Counted from the first letter of the stretch, positions 2,700 to 53,404 are shown. The stretch: 64,000 nucleotides of DNA from Escherichia phage vB_EcoP_SU10 (NC_027395.1); one strand, 5' to 3'. Numbers and translations are program-made. Notes: a model not told the origin generated them from the letters alone.

Positions 2700-5600
2700 A
2701 TGGCGCTGTATCCAATAAAGTCACTAGGTGCTGTAGGCGTTATCGCTGACCAAGCTCCGACAGACTTAGCTCCTAATGCTTTCACTAATGCTATAAATGC
2801 TCGATTTGTTGAGCAGAGAGTATTTAAGACGGGGGGCAATGCCCCTCTTTCTTATGTAGATGAAGATAAGGATTTAACCCCTCTGTCTTTCGTTTCTATG
2901 CCTTTCGATTATTATAGCGCAGGTAATAGCTTTCTTGTTGTAGGTACTAATAAGAAGTTATATAAACTGACAGATGAAAGCTTGACTGATATTAGCCGTA
3001 AGGTTGCTACAGTCACTAAGAAGGCTTCTGCCTCAATTAAGATTTATCCAGTTGTTTCTCAGATCGTTCCTAAAGAATCAACTATCTCAATGAACTTCAA
3101 TCAGACCAAGAATCTAGAGGTTTCTCTTCTCCCTGCTGATGCTAACAATACCAATCTTATTTGGGAGGTTAGTAACTCATCCTATGGAAGTATTACGGTA
3201 GACCCTAGTGACTCTAAACTTGCTACTCTAACATCTTTTGAGAAAGAGGGTAATCTTGTAGTAACTATCTCTACTGCCAATGAATCCGTAGTGGCTCAGA
3301 TTGCTGTTAATATCATCGATGGTGATTCAGGCATCTTCTTGAGTCAAGATACTGTTACAATTCGTAAAGGAGGGACTACTACTCTCACGGCTGTTACTGG
3401 TAAAACTCCTGTAACTTGGTCCAGCAATAATGCTTCTATTGTATCCGTAACCCCTAACGCCAACTCTTTAACTGCTGTCATTACAGCGAACGGAGAAGGT
3501 AATGTAACAATCACTGCTGATAACGGGACTAAGACTGCTTCTTGTGAGATTGTTTCTATCCCTCAGATTGATAGTATCTCTTTAAGCCAGTCAGATGTTA
3601 CTGTGAGTAGAGGTTCTCAGTATATTTTAACTGCCACCCTTTCTCCTGCTAACGCCCCTAATCAAAATATTACTTGGACCTCTTCTAACCCAAATATTGC
3701 AACAGTATCAGGGACTAGCACACAAGGGACGATCAACGCTCTGCTTGCTGGTTTTACTGAGATTACAGCTACCACTGAAGAAGGTAACAGAGTTGCTGTC
3801 TGTACTGTACGTGTGGATTTAGCTGGAAGGACAATGAGAACAAGTGCTATGGCATTTGCCGCTCCTGTGTCAGAGTCAGTAGAAACTCAAGAGGAAGAAG
3901 TAGTAACTCCTCCTGAAAGTGAAGAGACGGTTTATTTTGCTGAGCCTACATCCGGTATTGATACGTCAGGGATGTATGAAGGTAACAACTTCTATGACTA
4001 CTCTAACGTGAATGATATTGAAGGTTTTGCAAGAGCTTCTTTACTGGCAACCCCTTTGTCATCTGTAACCTTAGATATTGTCAGCGCTTCTCTTGATGTT
4101 GGTGAAGAGATTGTCATTACAGCCACAGCTTCTCCAGAAGGTGAGTACTCTTATCAGTGGTCTGTTGATAAAACTGGTTATGTTTCTACAACTTCAGTTA
4201 CTGGTAAATCTATCAAACTGGTTGCTCTTCGTAAAGGAGAGATTAACGTAACATGTACTGTCAGTCAGATGACTCAGAAAGATTACGATGCTTTTGATGA
4301 CTATCCTTGGTATCACGCTGTTATCTCTAACTGTGCAGTTGCTACAACTCACTATGAAACTCCTCAGGTAAAAGAATTCGAATCAGAATACTTTGTAGAC
4401 CTTCCGGGGTGGGGTGAGCAAACAGTTGTTGATAACGATGGAAACCCTTCAGTCAAGAAGTTTAACTGGAAATGTGAAAGAGTAAGATCTTTTAACAACC
4501 GTCTTTTTGCTCTGAATATGAGAGAAGCTAATGCTTCTGGTGTTACCACTAACTATCCGCTTCGTCTTCGTTGGTCTAACTTTGCCAATGAGAACAAGGC
4601 TCCTACACTGTGGGATGACTTTGCCTATGATCGAGTTGTGTCTTCGGACTTAGCTTCTAACATCGTAGGGCAGACTCAGGCTCTAGAGAATGGGTATGCT
4701 GGTTACATTGACTTAGCAGATTCTAATGGTAGCTTGATTGATATCCTACCTCTTAAGGATTACTTGTTCGTTTATACAGAGTTTGAAACGTATATTGGTT
4801 CTCCGACTAATAACACGTACCAACCTCTAATGTTCAAGAAGCTCTTTAACGACTCTGGTATCCTTGCTCCCGAGTGTGTGGTTGAAGTAGAAGGTAGTCA
4901 CTTCGTAGTTACTCAGAACGATGTAATCTTACACAATGGTGCAACCAAGAAATCAATTGCATCTAACCGTGTTAAGAATATGTTGATTAATGAGGTGTGT
5001 CTGGTTAACCCTCTAGCAACTCGAGTACACTTGCATCAGGATAAGAAAGAAGTTTGGGTTCTGTACGTAGGTCCGGGAGAACCAAAAGAAAGCTTCGCTT
5101 GTACTAAAGCTGCTGTATGGAATTATGAGTTTGATACTTGGTCTTTCCGTACTATTCCATATGCTCAGTGTATCGGTCTTGTTGATCCTCCTGTTTTAGA
5201 AAGAGGTCCAATCTGGTCTGACTTCCAAGAAATCACTTGGGATGACCCATCTATTAAAGAACTCGTTTGGAGAAAGGATGCAACAAACTTTAGACAGAGG
5301 GTTACGATAGTAGGTTCATTCTTGAAGGGATTCTATCAAGTGGATGTAGGTGCTCTTGATTATTTCTATGACAGGCTAAACGATGTTGTTATAGAGAAGC
5401 CTCTGGAAATGAGGTTGGAGAGGACTGGTATAGATTTTGATAATGTGACTAATGAGTGGAATCAGAAGCATATTAACAGGTTCCGGCCTCAGACAACCGG
5501 TTCAGGTACTTACATATTTGAAGCTGGTGGTAGTCAATTCTCAAATGAATATGGACACCCACACACATCGAAGACTTATACAATTGGTGTTGACAGGCAT

Positions 5601-6730: not shown

Positions 6731-7762
6731 ATGGCATACGGAATATGGACACAACCAGTAGGGCCGGGGCCAGCAATCCCCGCTCCCTTATTTATTGATA
6801 GCGGAAGCACTTTCCCTCAGTTCAAGAATAGTATAAGAGGGAGTTTTAACTTTAATGGGGCTGGGAGATCTTTCCCTATTAGTGGATGGGATGGCAGTGG
6901 TCAGATAGTTATTGTTCCTACCGGTTCTTTATGCTGGCAATGGGAAGTCCCTCCTAACCTAGTTCCTGATGTTTATTGTGTGAATAATATCTACGTAGAA
7001 AACAGTTCCTCTTTTAGAGTTACTCTGAATCAGAACCCCGGCAGGAACCCCTTATTTGACTGTGGGTTCAACGTATATCAAATATGGCCTAGAGCGGATA
7101 GGAATTACGGAATTACCTTTTCTAATACAGCAGACTACTTCTCGATATCTGATAGTGGGGTCGTCGGTCAATGTATTTGGGCTTGGCAGGGGACCATAAA
7201 CAATGCCCTTCAGATACCAAATATCGGTGGGTTCAATATGACCAATGCTGTTGTGTTTGCTAATTGGTCTGATGGAGGGATAGGACTATCTTATACCTCT
7301 GATGACAGGGTTATTCGTGTTTATCAGAACAGACCTTACATAAACGGCAACACTAACGAGGGTGGTTCTGTGTTTGCTAGAGTTGCAGTATTCTGCAATG
7401 GAGCAGGAGTTCCGGAACATAATGGAGGTTTGAATATTTATTCTCCGGGTACCACGCAATGTGTCTTCTCTACTAACAGAACACCTTTCACTGTGGATAC
7501 TTTTATAGGCTCAGGAGGTGGTAACACTGGAATGACATACCCTATGATACCTCTTACCTCTGGAATAGGTGCGATAAAAGGCCGAGGCAGTGGATGGAGA
7601 TATCAGCAAATGAGATCTCACACCATGAGTGGTTCTACGATAGGAACGGGCTATGGAAGGTATTTATTTCAGTGGAATCAGAATTACGACCTAGGAGCTG
7701 ATACTGTAGTTAATTTATCAGTTCCTGTAATAAATGCAGCTAAGGTTTTTGCTGGACTATAA
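6731..7762 (+). CDS. tail fibre / receptor-binding protein candidate
   Basis: 343-aa Gly/Asn/Ser/Thr-rich ORF directly following tail fibre gene. Confidence 0.4.
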   Translation: MAYGIWTQPVGPGPAIPAPLFIDSGSTFPQFKNSIRGSFNFNGAGRSFPISGWDGSGQIVIVPTGSLCWQWEVPPNLVPDVYCVNNIYVENSSSFRVTLNQNPGRNPLFDCGFNVYQIWPRADRNYGITFSNTADYFSISDSGVVGQCIWAWQGTINNALQIPNIGGFNMTNAVVFANWSDGGIGLSYTSDDRVIRVYQNRPYINGNTNEGGSVFARVAVFCNGAGVPEHNGGLNIYSPGTTQCVFSTNRTPFTVDTFIGSGGGNTGMTYPMIPLTSGIGAIKGRGSGWRYQQMRSHTMSGSTIGTGYGRYLFQWNQNYDLGADTVVNLSVPVINAAKVFAGL

Positions 7763-7774
7763 CAAGGAGATATT

Positions 7775-8557
7775 ATGGCAATTAATATGGGTATTGAAGA
7801 ACTAGACCCAATGGTTCAACAGGCTTCAAAGAAGTATGGGATTCCTGCTGCTTTGATTCATGCTGTAATCCAAAGAGAGTCTAGTGGTCGTCCTACAGTA
7901 GCCTCTGGAACTGGTCCTGTAGGTTTAATGCAGATCAGTAAAGGGTTGGCTAAAGACTACGGTTACAAACTAGAAGACAGACTTGACCCAGCAAAGAATA
8001 TTGATATGGGTGCTCGTTATATTCGAGATAACTTAAAGGCTTTTAATGGTGATGTTAAGAAAGCAATGGTTGGTTATTCAGAAGGTATTGGTGGAGCTAA
8101 GCAAATGTTCGCTGGTAAAAAGGGATTTACACCTCAAGCCCTTGACTCAATGAACAACAAACACTTTCTTCCTTTCTATGGTGATGCAGCTTCTCAGATT
8201 GCTAACCCTGTTGGAGCTTTGCAAGCTGTTCAACCAGTCAACCAGTTTAGTTCTGACTTACTAGACAGAGAGAAAGCCGCACAAGCTCCAACTCAGGCAG
8301 AGATTGCTGCTTCTAAGACAGGTGCTTTAGGCGGAAATCCAGTAGAGTTTTACTCTGATGAAGTGCAGGAAGGCGAAAACCAGAAACCTCAACAGAACTT
8401 TGGTAATGCAGTATTAGGGGTAGCTGCTATGCTTGCTGGTAAACCTCCCACTTCTCAAACAGTTCAGAGGGCAAGTGCACCACATGCAGCAGGTTCTCAG
8501 TACAGTCCACAAACACAAGCAGTGCTCAGACGTTTGGCTAGCATTGGTGTAAAGTAA
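7775..8557 (+). CDS. virion-associated lytic transglycosylase (SLT domain)
   Basis: QRESSGRPTVASGTGPVGLMQIS matches the catalytic E-S ... GLMQ motif of soluble lytic transglycosylases; RBS AAGGAGA. Confidence 0.7.
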   Translation: MAINMGIEELDPMVQQASKKYGIPAALIHAVIQRESSGRPTVASGTGPVGLMQISKGLAKDYGYKLEDRLDPAKNIDMGARYIRDNLKAFNGDVKKAMVGYSEGIGGAKQMFAGKKGFTPQALDSMNNKHFLPFYGDAASQIANPVGALQAVQPVNQFSSDLLDREKAAQAPTQAEIAASKTGALGGNPVEFYSDEVQEGENQKPQQNFGNAVLGVAAMLAGKPPTSQTVQRASAPHAAGSQYSPQTQAVLRRLASIGVK

Positions 8558-12299: not shown

Positions 12300-12308
12300 T
12301 AATGTATA
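12300..12308 (+). promoter_or_regulatory. TAATGTATA promoter-like nonamer upstream of the large virion protein gene
   Basis: Exact TAATGTATA 38 nt upstream of ATG 12347; the same nonamer recurs upstream of other genes in this window. Confidence 0.5.
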
Positions 12309-22906: not shown

Positions 22907-22915
22907 TATACATTA
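22907..22915 (-). promoter_or_regulatory. TAATGTATA promoter-like nonamer upstream of SSB gene
   Basis: Exact nonamer on - strand 59 nt upstream of ATG 22847. Confidence 0.45.
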
Positions 22916-22978: not shown

Positions 22979-22987
22979 TAATGTATA
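22979..22987 (+). promoter_or_regulatory. TAATGTATA nonamer in opposite orientation (divergent, no + gene downstream)
   Basis: Exact nonamer on + strand inside 410-bp AT-rich intergenic region. Confidence 0.3.
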
Positions 22988-29698: not shown

Positions 29699-29707
29699 TA
29701 TACATTA
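29699..29707 (-). promoter_or_regulatory. TAATGTATA promoter-like nonamer
   Basis: Exact nonamer on - strand upstream of 29348..29662. Confidence 0.45.
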
Positions 29708-52906: not shown

Positions 52907-53188
52907 TTACCACTCCTTACCGGTTGTTGTTACAGAACCACCACACCACTGCGCATCGGATAAGGTTTTAGTCTTCTCATCTACTGCTGCACCATTCAGG
53001 CATGAGATACCACTGTAACGCATATCAATTTCACCAGAAGGAACCTTCTCGCCCTTATGCCAGCGAGAAACACAAACACCTTCCACTGCTACTGCACACC
53101 ATCCATCAGGACGGCTCTGTACGCAGCCTGTAAGGGCCACACAGACAAGGAAGATACAGATTAAGGATATTACACCACCCCAACTCAT
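52907..53188 (-). CDS. Cys-rich lipoprotein candidate
   Basis: Hydrophobic leader ending in lipobox LTGC; n-region lacks basic residues. Confidence 0.4.
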   Translation of the reverse strand: MSWGGVISLICIFLVCVALTGCVQSRPDGWCAVAVEGVCVSRWHKGEKVPSGEIDMRYSGISCLNGAAVDEKTKTLSDAQWCGGSVTTTGKEW

Positions 53189-53328
53189 AACTACCTCCTA
53201 TTTGATTTGGTGGACTATCTGGAATCGAACCAGAAGCTCACTAAGAAAGTAATTCCCACTGTTATAAAAGCACTTGCCTCAACAGGGATACACTAACTCT
53301 GGTGCCGCACCCATACTAGCCCTAAATG

Positions 53329-53404
53329 TGGTGCGCCCTACAGGACTCGAACCTGTAACCAATAGCTTAGAAGGCTACTGCTCTATCCATTGAGCTAAGA
53401 GCGC
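53329..53404 (-). tRNA. tRNA-Arg (anticodon UCU)
   Basis: Hand-folded cloverleaf: acceptor GCGCTCT/AGGGCGC, D-arm GCTC-AATGGATA-GAGC, anticodon loop CTTCTAA, T-arm ACAGG-TTCGAGT-CCTGT, encoded CCA. Confidence 0.8.

Follow-up and report, generated by a model that had tools for sequence, protein, structure and literature searches.

We analysed a 64,000-nucleotide stretch of Escherichia phage vB_EcoP_SU10 (NC_027395.1; the whole stretch is called the window), a coli-infecting, phiEco32-like podophage (Gordonclarkvirinae) whose closest match is Escherichia phage PGN6866, and describe here a 115-nucleotide (nt) unit resembling a transfer RNA (tRNA) that lies on the minus strand directly behind a tRNA-Arg(UCU) gene. 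On that strand the order is the end of a 54-amino-acid (aa) open reading frame (ORF), tRNA-Arg(UCU), the spacer CAUUUA, the 115-nt unit, the A/U-rich trailer AAUCAAAU, a Shine-Dalgarno sequence (AGGAGG), five further nucleotides and the AUG of a lipoprotein-like gene (Table 1). The neighbouring proteins all belong to PHROG families lacking assigned function. A preliminary description of this DNA had placed here a tRNA-Arg(UCU) that reads AGA, and the UCU anticodon, the ARAGORN call and the Rfam score agree with it. It had further reported a T-arm plus CCA at 53208-53240, preceded by bases from which no standard cloverleaf could be folded. The motif is present at 53208-53234, the earlier start having taken in 6 nt upstream of the T-stem, and the failure to fold a cloverleaf was borne out by negative results with both Rfam and ARAGORN. 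What had been missed is the pairing of GGGCUA (53322-53317) with UAGUCC (53217-53212), by which the 115-nt unit is closed; the supposed fragment is the 3' end of this unit.

The two ends of the unit carry its tRNA-like features. On the minus strand, the last 27 nt (53234-53208) read UCUGG-UUCGAUU-CCAGA-UAGUCC-A-CCA, so that a T-arm with a 5-base-pair (bp) stem, the G53-C61 pair and a canonical 7-nt loop of the UUCRANN type is followed by a 3' acceptor strand, a discriminator and an encoded CCA. The T-loop core GGTTCGANTCC occurs twice in the window, once in tRNA-Arg and once in the unit, relative to 0.06 copies expected from shuffled sequences, and its presence in the unit is therefore not due to chance. 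The acceptor pairs are G1-C111, G2-C110, G3.U109, C4-G108, U5-A107 and A6-U106, with A112 as the discriminator; in tRNA numbering, the third pair is equivalent to G3.U70 and the discriminator to A73. The pairing probability of this helix is 0.999 in the unconstrained ensemble, and six of six pairs are kept in all sequences. Judged by G3.U70 and A73, the acceptor-like helix is of the tRNA-Ala or transfer-messenger RNA (tmRNA) type, and its six pairs would stack on the T-arm and end in A-CCA. The 3' end of the unit resembles the 3' ends of tRNA-Ala (ACAGUCCACCA) and that of the tRNA-Gln of Klebsiella phage Mineola.

Table 1. Features of the tRNA-Arg(UCU) locus in the window, and long tRNA-like RNAs found elsewhere (positions in brackets are counted from G1 of the unit)
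Feature	Coordinates	Strand	Basis or remarks
tRNA-Arg(UCU) with encoded CCA	53329..53404	-	ARAGORN call; Rfam RF00005, 72.4 bits; upstream partner, same transcription unit
Spacer CAUUUA, 6 nt, tRNA CCA to G1 of unit	53323..53328	-	Sequence
Whole tRNA-like unit, 115 nt, G1 to A115 of ACCA	53208..53322	-	Conserved block, bounded at both ends
5' acceptor strand GGGCUA (1-6)	53317..53322	-	Pairs with 53212-53217
D-arm-like segment (10-23): 3-bp stem UGG/CCA, 8-nt loop with GG and polymorphic R15	53300..53313	-	Read from sequence
Long irregular arm (24-80), 57 nt, in anticodon-arm place	53243..53299	-	Constrained and unconstrained folds
Apical hairpin of long arm (35-68), its stablest part	53255-53288	-	Pair probability 0.9-0.99
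Alternative anticodon-arm-like hairpin (71-85): UUAC/GUGA, loop UUUCUUA	53238..53252	-	ARAGORN at 70% threshold
Canonical T-arm UCUGG-UUCGAUU-CCAGA	53218..53234	-	Sequence; invariant among 13 genomes
3' acceptor strand UAGUCC, discriminator A, CCA	53208..53217	-	Sequence; invariant among 13 genomes
A/U-rich trailer, Shine-Dalgarno and start codon	53186..53207	-	Sequence, ORF list
Shine-Dalgarno AGGAGG of downstream gene	53194-53199	-	Sequence
ATG of downstream 93-aa lipoprotein-like gene	53186-53188	-	ORF list; 5 nt after AGGAGG
Two-T-arm RNA, L016	7523-7637	-	
Two-T-arm RNA, L029	221-337	+	
Two-T-arm RNA, L019	7109-7224	-	
Two-T-arm RNA, L026	1515-1627	-	
Two-T-arm RNA, L030	4434-4530	-	
Single-T-arm RNA, L015	7233-7337	+	
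Single-T-arm RNA, L020	2050-2148	+	
Single-T-arm RNA, L027	2111-2212	-	
Single-T-arm RNA, L025	7750-7868	-	
Single-T-arm RNA, L022	2141-2259	+	

The unit is present in 28 phage records at 97.6-100% identity, out of ~95 related records that carry the neighbouring gene (~30%); the carriers include PGN6866, CHD5UKE1, SkaterBoy_Bas90 and YF01. A feature covering it is annotated in none of the 28 (0/28), the few tRNA-Arg rows stemming from the neighbouring tRNA, which the query just reaches at its edge, and papers on this phage group that used tRNAscan-SE and ARAGORN report a single tRNA (PMC9965538, PMC4281155). It is absent in SU7, EcoN5, E20-1, pEC-N1203-2Af.1, StefiGeyer and phiEco32; in phiEco32, the CCA of tRNA-Arg is joined straight to AAUCAAAUAGGAGG, with neither unit nor spacer. 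Beyond these records, IMG/VR contains neither the exact 3' 24-mer nor an interior 20-mer, a blastn search with the interior at E ≤ 10 gave no further relative, and the IMG/VR relatives of the downstream protein are all without the unit. In an alignment of seven unit-bearing phages with phiEco32, conservation starts exactly at (A)GGGCUAG and stops at CCACCA, with divergence right outside these boundaries, for example in EP335. The same block sits behind either of two unrelated alleles of tRNA-Arg(UCU), which differ in their spacers (in the other allele group the spacer is AUUUUUAAACAA or AUUUUAAACAA) and ahead of three different downstream genes.

Compared to six relatives, the unit is 97.4-99.1% identical, against 81-99% for the downstream ORF, 67-87% for the upstream ORF and 85.5-100% for tRNA-Arg, where the latter is homologous at all; in most comparisons the flanking ORFs are 67-88% identical. 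Across 13 genomes from Kuravirus, Suseptimavirus and Nieuwekanaalvirus, 111 of the 115 positions are invariant. The variable sites (15, 24, 48 and 73) all show purine transitions, two of them in loops and two opposite U, and every pair is kept: the change at 24 turns G24.U80 into A-U and that at 73 turns U31-A73 into U.G. Because the alleles at sites 15 and 73 occur in each of their four possible combinations, recombination or recurrent mutation has to be assumed rather than one very recent copy. At the level of sequence comparison, these data show the unit to be under far stronger constraint than its surroundings, and they show the long arm, not the minihelix alone, to be under selection.

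When the acceptor and the T-arm are enforced, the unit adopts a cloverleaf-like fold comprising the acceptor, a small 5' hairpin, the long arm, eight unpaired nucleotides and the T-arm. For the small hairpin we prefer a D-like arm, in which UGG at 10-12 pairs with CCA at 21-23, although this reading is weakly supported; the G/A polymorphism at position 15 breaks an alternative GGUG/CACC mini-hairpin and is neutral in the D-like model.

A comparable arrangement is known from phage T4, where tRNA-Arg(UCU) (L002, 1674-1748) is followed after 1 nt by rnaD (119 nt) and then by rnaC (139 nt). The products, RNAC (species 1) and RNAD (species 2), are expressed and non-decoding, with no role assigned (PMC3014915, PMC9697503). 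As with the unit, these RNAs lie directly 3' of tRNA-Arg(UCU), co-oriented and within a tRNA transcription unit, fall in the 115-140 nt range and have tRNA-like termini. In addition, rnaC shares with the unit paired termini, a long irregular arm and a 3'-proximal canonical T-arm (CCGGG-UUCGAAU-CCCGG), and rnaD shares a 3' end in CACCA. The differences are that T4 has two such RNAs and the window phage one, that rnaC has neither an encoded CCA nor G3.U70, that T4 is a myovirus of the Straboviridae, unrelated to the podoviral Gordonclarkvirinae, and that RNAC and RNAD are RNAs of demonstrated expression, whereas the RNA from the unit is a predicted one. By position and architecture, not by sequence, the T4 RNAs are the closest analogues we can name; we have not filed the unit in their family, because it has no sequence homology to either.

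Taken together, we favour the reading, with a probability of roughly 0.55, that 53208-53322 (minus strand) encodes a stable 115-nt tRNA-like RNA which is processed from a co-transcript with tRNA-Arg and constitutes an accessory gene of phiEco32-like coliphages. On the evidence of conservation and architecture, the unit is a real, strongly conserved and previously unannotated tRNA-like RNA gene, representing a new family within a known kind of phage RNA. Of the 'tRNA-like regulatory RNA' considered in the preliminary description, the tRNA-like part is substantiated by the paired termini, the T-arm, the encoded ACCA and the exact conserved boundaries; the regulatory part is not. Since no promoter (including sigma-70) or terminator was found at the unit or nearby, we infer that it is co-transcribed with tRNA-Arg inside a leftward operon of small ORFs. 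RNase P would cut 5' of G1, also freeing the trailer of tRNA-Arg, so that CAUUUA would serve both as that trailer and as the RNase P leader of the unit. RNase E and 3' exonucleases would then trim the A/U-rich trailer to the encoded CCA, and the product would accumulate as a stable RNA, like T4 RNAC and RNAD.

Several points weigh against this reading. In the literature, no transcriptome data were found for unit-bearing Kuravirus-like phages. The unit is dispensable, ~70% of related phages being without it, and its high identity could partly come from recent horizontal spread by recombination. No compensatory covariation was seen, that is, no pair has changed on both sides, with variable sites too few for power, and four shuffle tests gave no significant sequence similarity to T4 rnaC or rnaD (p = 0.08-0.5). 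The unconstrained minimum free energy (MFE) fold breaks the T-arm and the significance of the MFE is modest (z = -1.96), so thermodynamics alone is insufficient as proof of the fold. The acceptor has only six pairs, G7 at the seventh position being unpartnered, and the acceptor/T stack is 11 bp as against the canonical 12. With six pairs in place of seven, the register of RNase P cleavage is ambiguous: if Mineola tRNA-Gln is taken as the model, a second possible register would place an A(-1).A112 mismatch at 1-72, make C113 the discriminator, leave no CCA and shift the G.U pair to 4-69. From what is established about substrates of RNase P, the presence of G(+1) and of an encoded ACCA would favour the first register. 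In that register C4-G69 stands in place of the minor alanine determinant G4-C69, which is, like the 6-bp helix, a caveat for the alanylation discussed below.

The first alternative, which we regard as unlikely, is that the unit is a cis-acting processing or 'punctuation' element of a polycistronic mRNA, the fold recruiting RNase P and RNase E and the excised RNA being roleless. Cleavage would part the tRNA from the downstream message and set the 5' end or the stability of the next gene's mRNA. A unit that lies 8-9 nt upstream of the next Shine-Dalgarno sequence, internal to an operon with no promoter or terminator nearby, and is followed by a trailer (AAUCAAAUAGGAGG) that is conserved even ahead of different downstream genes, is well placed for such a role. 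Relatives without the unit, however, have the CCA of tRNA-Arg at the same spot before the same trailer and ribosome-binding site, so that the tRNA already gives a processing site, and processing needs only an acceptor/T minihelix, leaving the invariance of the 57-nt arm unexplained.

Slightly less probable again is that the unit is the decaying, non-functional relic of a second tRNA gene (Gln-, Ala- or Arg-like), produced by an insertion and the loss of 1 nt from the acceptor and recently spread by recombination. This would account for its non-canonical form (an acceptor of 6 bp, the lack of a usable anticodon arm, the failure of covariance models to hit it) and for its absence from ~70% of relatives; the region is also recombinogenic, with HNH endonuclease genes close by in some relatives. 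In keeping with such an origin, the tRNA-Gln of Jiaodavirus (e.g., Klebsiella phage Mineola) has an identical T-stem (UCUGG/CCAGA), a near-identical 3' acceptor strand (UAGUCCA) and a 5' end, GGACUA-UA, resembling GGGCUA-(G)-UA of the unit; over the 3' 34 nt of the unit, counting 6 nt of trailer, 31 of 34 positions are identical (91%). The Mineola gene is nevertheless a normal 75-nt cloverleaf with discriminator G, relative to which the unit lacks the discriminator position (or one acceptor pair), has ~40 nt extra and is without an anticodon arm, and common descent is not established, the E-value of the match being only 9e-3.

The pattern of conservation is difficult to reconcile with decay. 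Over its 115 nt, the unit shows only 2-3 differences from its copies in genomes where the adjoining ORFs have diverged at 12-33% of sites, and in the IME267/MLP3 lineage it is more conserved than the adjoining functional tRNA (2/115 differences versus 11/76). Polymorphism is confined to four sites, which recur in several combinations, the other 111 never changing, and the boundaries of the unit are exact in independent contexts, among them two different tRNA-Arg alleles. Against the identities of 67-88% in most flanking ORFs, such values do not fit a neutral rate, and the tRNA pseudogene proposed in the preliminary description is accordingly disfavoured.

Decoding by the unit itself is improbable. 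In this alternative it would be an aberrant but working tRNA with the acceptor, the D-like arm, a 45-nt extra arm at position 26, an anticodon arm with a 4-bp stem and the loop UUUCUUA, a short variable region and the T-arm, reading AGA/AGG through UCU and possibly charged with alanine through G3.U70. The hairpin at positions 71-85 does have a 7-nt loop with U33 and UCU at 34-36, its ensemble probability is ~0.35 without constraints, and the A73G polymorphism keeps the 73-83 pair. It has U37 in place of a purine and a stem of 4 bp rather than 5, however, and the remaining variable region would be 2-3 nt; there is no precedent for an arm at position 26. The hairpin competes with the base of the long arm, falling to a probability of 0.04 when the T-arm is enforced, and the model containing it lies 4.5 kcal/mol above the long-arm fold in free energy. 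Alanine at AGA codons would moreover harm a phage that is a heavy user of AGA (PMC9965538).

Covariance models gave no support for a decoding tRNA. RF00005 has no match to 53208-53322 even at E ≤ 10 (searches with 401 nt and 129 nt), no Rfam family spans the unit at the gathering threshold or at E ≤ 10, and ARAGORN at default settings calls only tRNA-Arg. With no usable anticodon arm, decoding is unlikely. The intron-containing tRNA that had been suggested fared no better: the intron mode of ARAGORN (-i) was empty at default thresholds, and when each 15-59-nt segment was removed by brute force, one of 2025 variants was called, with a nonsense AUA anticodon. An insert of ~40 nt is also far below the size of a group I intron. 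Relaxed thresholds yielded many, mutually contradictory calls on the excision variants and, on the unit region, inconsistent calls overlapping the real tRNA. Of the checks proposed in the preliminary description, relaxed and intron-mode ARAGORN and covariance models thus gave no consistent tRNA.

A DNA-level or protein-coding feature is very improbable indeed: as a gp36 sigma promoter, TAGTGTATC (positions 28-36) matches the consensus tAATGTAtA (PMC8948821) at 7/9 positions, but both mismatches fall at conserved ones and sites with ≤1 mismatch are at chance in the window (20 found, 20.2 expected); as for an att-like tRNA fragment, blastn at E ≤ 1 matched the unit to none of 5,426 complete E. 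coli genomes and to no PLSDB plasmid, and no integrase was among the annotated features around the locus in the related records examined; and in the 11-codon micro-ORF that does exist (AUG at positions 9-11, MGAAPELVYPC), both internal polymorphisms are non-synonymous first-codon-position changes and there is no Shine-Dalgarno sequence. Two further candidates were discarded. As an antisense RNA, the unit finds targets within the window at chance level, and the direct repeat TTAGTG (positions 27-32 and 79-84), considered as a target-site duplication, is of a kind expected by chance, a repeated 6-mer in 115 nt being estimated to occur ~1.5 times.

The favoured tRNA-like RNA also resembles the tRNA-like domain of tmRNA and minihelices of tRNA-Ala. 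It has G3.U70 (pair 3-109), A73 (A112) and, in the register using the encoded CCA, a CCA-ending helix stacked on a canonical T-arm; a long helix takes the place of the anticodon arm, the D region is reduced, and the only weak Rfam matches of its 3' end, at ~8 bits, are to tmRNA models. The unit differs from tmRNA in its length (115 nt versus at least ~230 nt), in having neither pseudoknots nor a tag frame that stops before the T-arm, and in its acceptor of 6 bp, not 7. A tmRNA was rejected: ARAGORN (-m) found 0 genes even at the 70% threshold, the Rfam scores were 8.2 bits for beta_tmRNA (gathering threshold 84) and 7.7 bits for permuted tmRNA (47), confined to the 3' end, and our own reading found no GCA-frame ORF ending before the T-arm.

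Alanyl-tRNA synthetase (AlaRS) reads the acceptor helix only. In bacteria, the main alanine identity elements are G3.U70, G2-C71 and A73 (major or supporting), with G4-C69 and G20 being minor (PMC9976931). In the unit, depending on the RNase P register, G3.U70, G2-C71 and A73 are present, 4-69 is C-G and G20 is unassignable. Because AlaRS reads no more than the helix in which the first three elements are found, alanylation of the unit is plausible, although we would hold it at somewhat less than even odds.

Other observations concern the neighbouring tRNA-Arg and its surroundings. In phiEco32, tRNA-Arg(UCU) (L001, 2012-2085, minus strand) has the acceptor GCGCCCU.../AGGGUGC, giving a G3.U70 pair and G73; pair 3-70 is G3-C70 in the window allele and A3-U70 in the IME267 allele. 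The phiEco32 pair is probably an intermediate of a compensatory change, yet it puts the alanine identity pair into an arginine tRNA. In Escherichia virus TH42 (an UNVERIFIED record; L008, 560-692), ARAGORN sees no tRNA upstream of the unit; that stretch is tRNA-like without a D-arm, its loop being CUUCUAA (UCU) and its variable region long, and it has a T-arm; behind it lies a degraded version of the second tRNA-Arg allele. In YF01 (L004, 174-623) and several relatives, HNH/homing endonuclease genes lie just upstream of tRNA-Arg and overlap its annotation; such insertions recall T4 segB next to tRNA-Arg and may drive mosaicism around the locus. Escherichia phage ECBP2 (L013, 1749-1842), which is without the unit, has another insert of ~90 nt in the same slot after tRNA-Arg; it forms one long hairpin (z = -5) whose 13-position terminal stem is followed by ACCA, like a model substrate of RNase P, and it was found in no other member of the phage collection. 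Elsewhere in the window, TAATGTATA, the consensus of the middle/late promoters of phiEco32 gp36 (PMC8948821), has four exact matches (12300-12308, plus; 22907-22915, minus; 22979-22987, plus; 29699-29707, minus), which are presumably real phage-sigma promoters of this genome.

Long tRNA-like RNAs are not confined to these phages. IMG/VR and metagenomes were searched with a gapped pattern fixing only GGGCTA(G), GGTTCGA and AGTCCACCA at unusual spacing; besides false positives that are ordinary tRNAs, it retrieved nine long tRNA-like RNAs of 97-119 nt (L015, L016, L019, L020, L025, L026, L027, L029 and L030), mostly inside phage-type tRNA arrays. T-stems and a seventh acceptor pair are present in them although the pattern specified neither. 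ARAGORN calls none of the nine (0/9), and of the eight scanned with Rfam (L016 being left out) only L015 is called, marginally, at 29.4 bits. They share with the unit a GGGCUAN/NUAGUCC-A-CCA acceptor, imposed in its sequence by the search pattern and hence not independent evidence, and a canonical T-arm. They differ in having a full 7-bp acceptor, in interiors whose similarity to that of the unit is at chance level (nine comparisons, smallest p = 0.042, for L016) and, in five cases, in a second internal T-arm with a permuted acceptor stem. As sequences, the nine loci show recurrence of such objects, not homology.

In the two-T-arm RNAs (97-117 nt), the outer part consists of a 7-bp Ala-type acceptor, T-arm and ACCA, and the inner part of a second T-arm, a 3' acceptor strand, ACCA, 3-5 nt and the matching 5' strand. 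The inner stem is thus circularly permuted and again has G3.U70 and A73; it reads ACAUUCC-ACCA-UUAC-GGGAUGU in L016 and ACGUUCC-ACCA-UUUAC-GGGACGU in L029, with a compensatory change between the two. The interiors of these RNAs are mutually similar, and none is called by ARAGORN (0/5) or, among the four scanned (L016 again left out), by Rfam (0/4). Cleavage by RNase P at the inner site would yield two RNAs, joined as a heterodimer that bears two acceptor ends of the alanine type. The single-T-arm RNAs (99-119 nt) combine the GGGCUAN/NUAGUCC-ACCA acceptor with two or three additional hairpins. Among these, L027 has a compensatory A7-U66 pair, and L015 stands alone behind a promoter-like TTGACT...GATAAT on a phage contig without tRNAs, barely reaching the Rfam tRNA threshold with large insertions. 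In four phages or contigs unrelated to one another, namely the window, T4, L016 and L030, long tRNA-like RNAs come straight after a tRNA-Arg gene that reads AGR, which could be chance in large arrays. In L016 the preceding gene (~7640-7800, minus strand) is tRNA-Arg(UCU)-like, with a large insertion, and is not called by ARAGORN; in L030 it is tRNA-Arg(CCU) (4537-4608, minus strand).

As to what the favoured RNA might do, it would more likely act as a mimic of the tRNA top half, engaging tRNA-handling proteins, than in decoding. Candidate partners would be host or defence enzymes acting on acceptor/CCA ends or on the elbow, with the invariant long arm conferring specificity. More speculatively, and with a low expectation that all of it will hold, we propose an alanine-accepting top-half mimic, tmRNA-like in acceptor, T-arm and elbow, directed against a host function that acts on the acceptor, CCA or elbow, and belonging to a wider, hitherto undescribed class of long Ala-type tRNA-like RNAs associated, in the tRNA clusters of phages, with tRNA-Arg genes that read AGR. 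Such a mimic might serve as the decoy or sponge of a defence toxin that attacks tRNAs, or it might hijack AlaRS, EF-Tu or RNase P. The wider class would take in the interlocked 'double minihelix' forms (L016, L019, L026, L029 and L030) and, functionally, perhaps T4 RNAC and RNAD.

The tRNA genes of phages are coming to be seen as a means of countering defences that target tRNAs. In T4, the pair of stable tRNA-like RNAs behind tRNA-Arg has been without an assigned function for ~50 years. The locus described here adds an independent case from a podophage that is unrelated to T4 and genetically simple, and its unit is small and sharply delimited. It also exposes a gap in annotation, since at least 28 deposited genomes and the papers on the group give 'one tRNA' and leave 115 conserved bases unexplained. 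Natural plus/minus pairs exist among otherwise near-isogenic relatives, for example CHD5UKE1 with the unit and phiEco32 without it, and the unit carries the alanine identity pair, so that the function of phage tRNA-like RNAs becomes directly testable at this locus.

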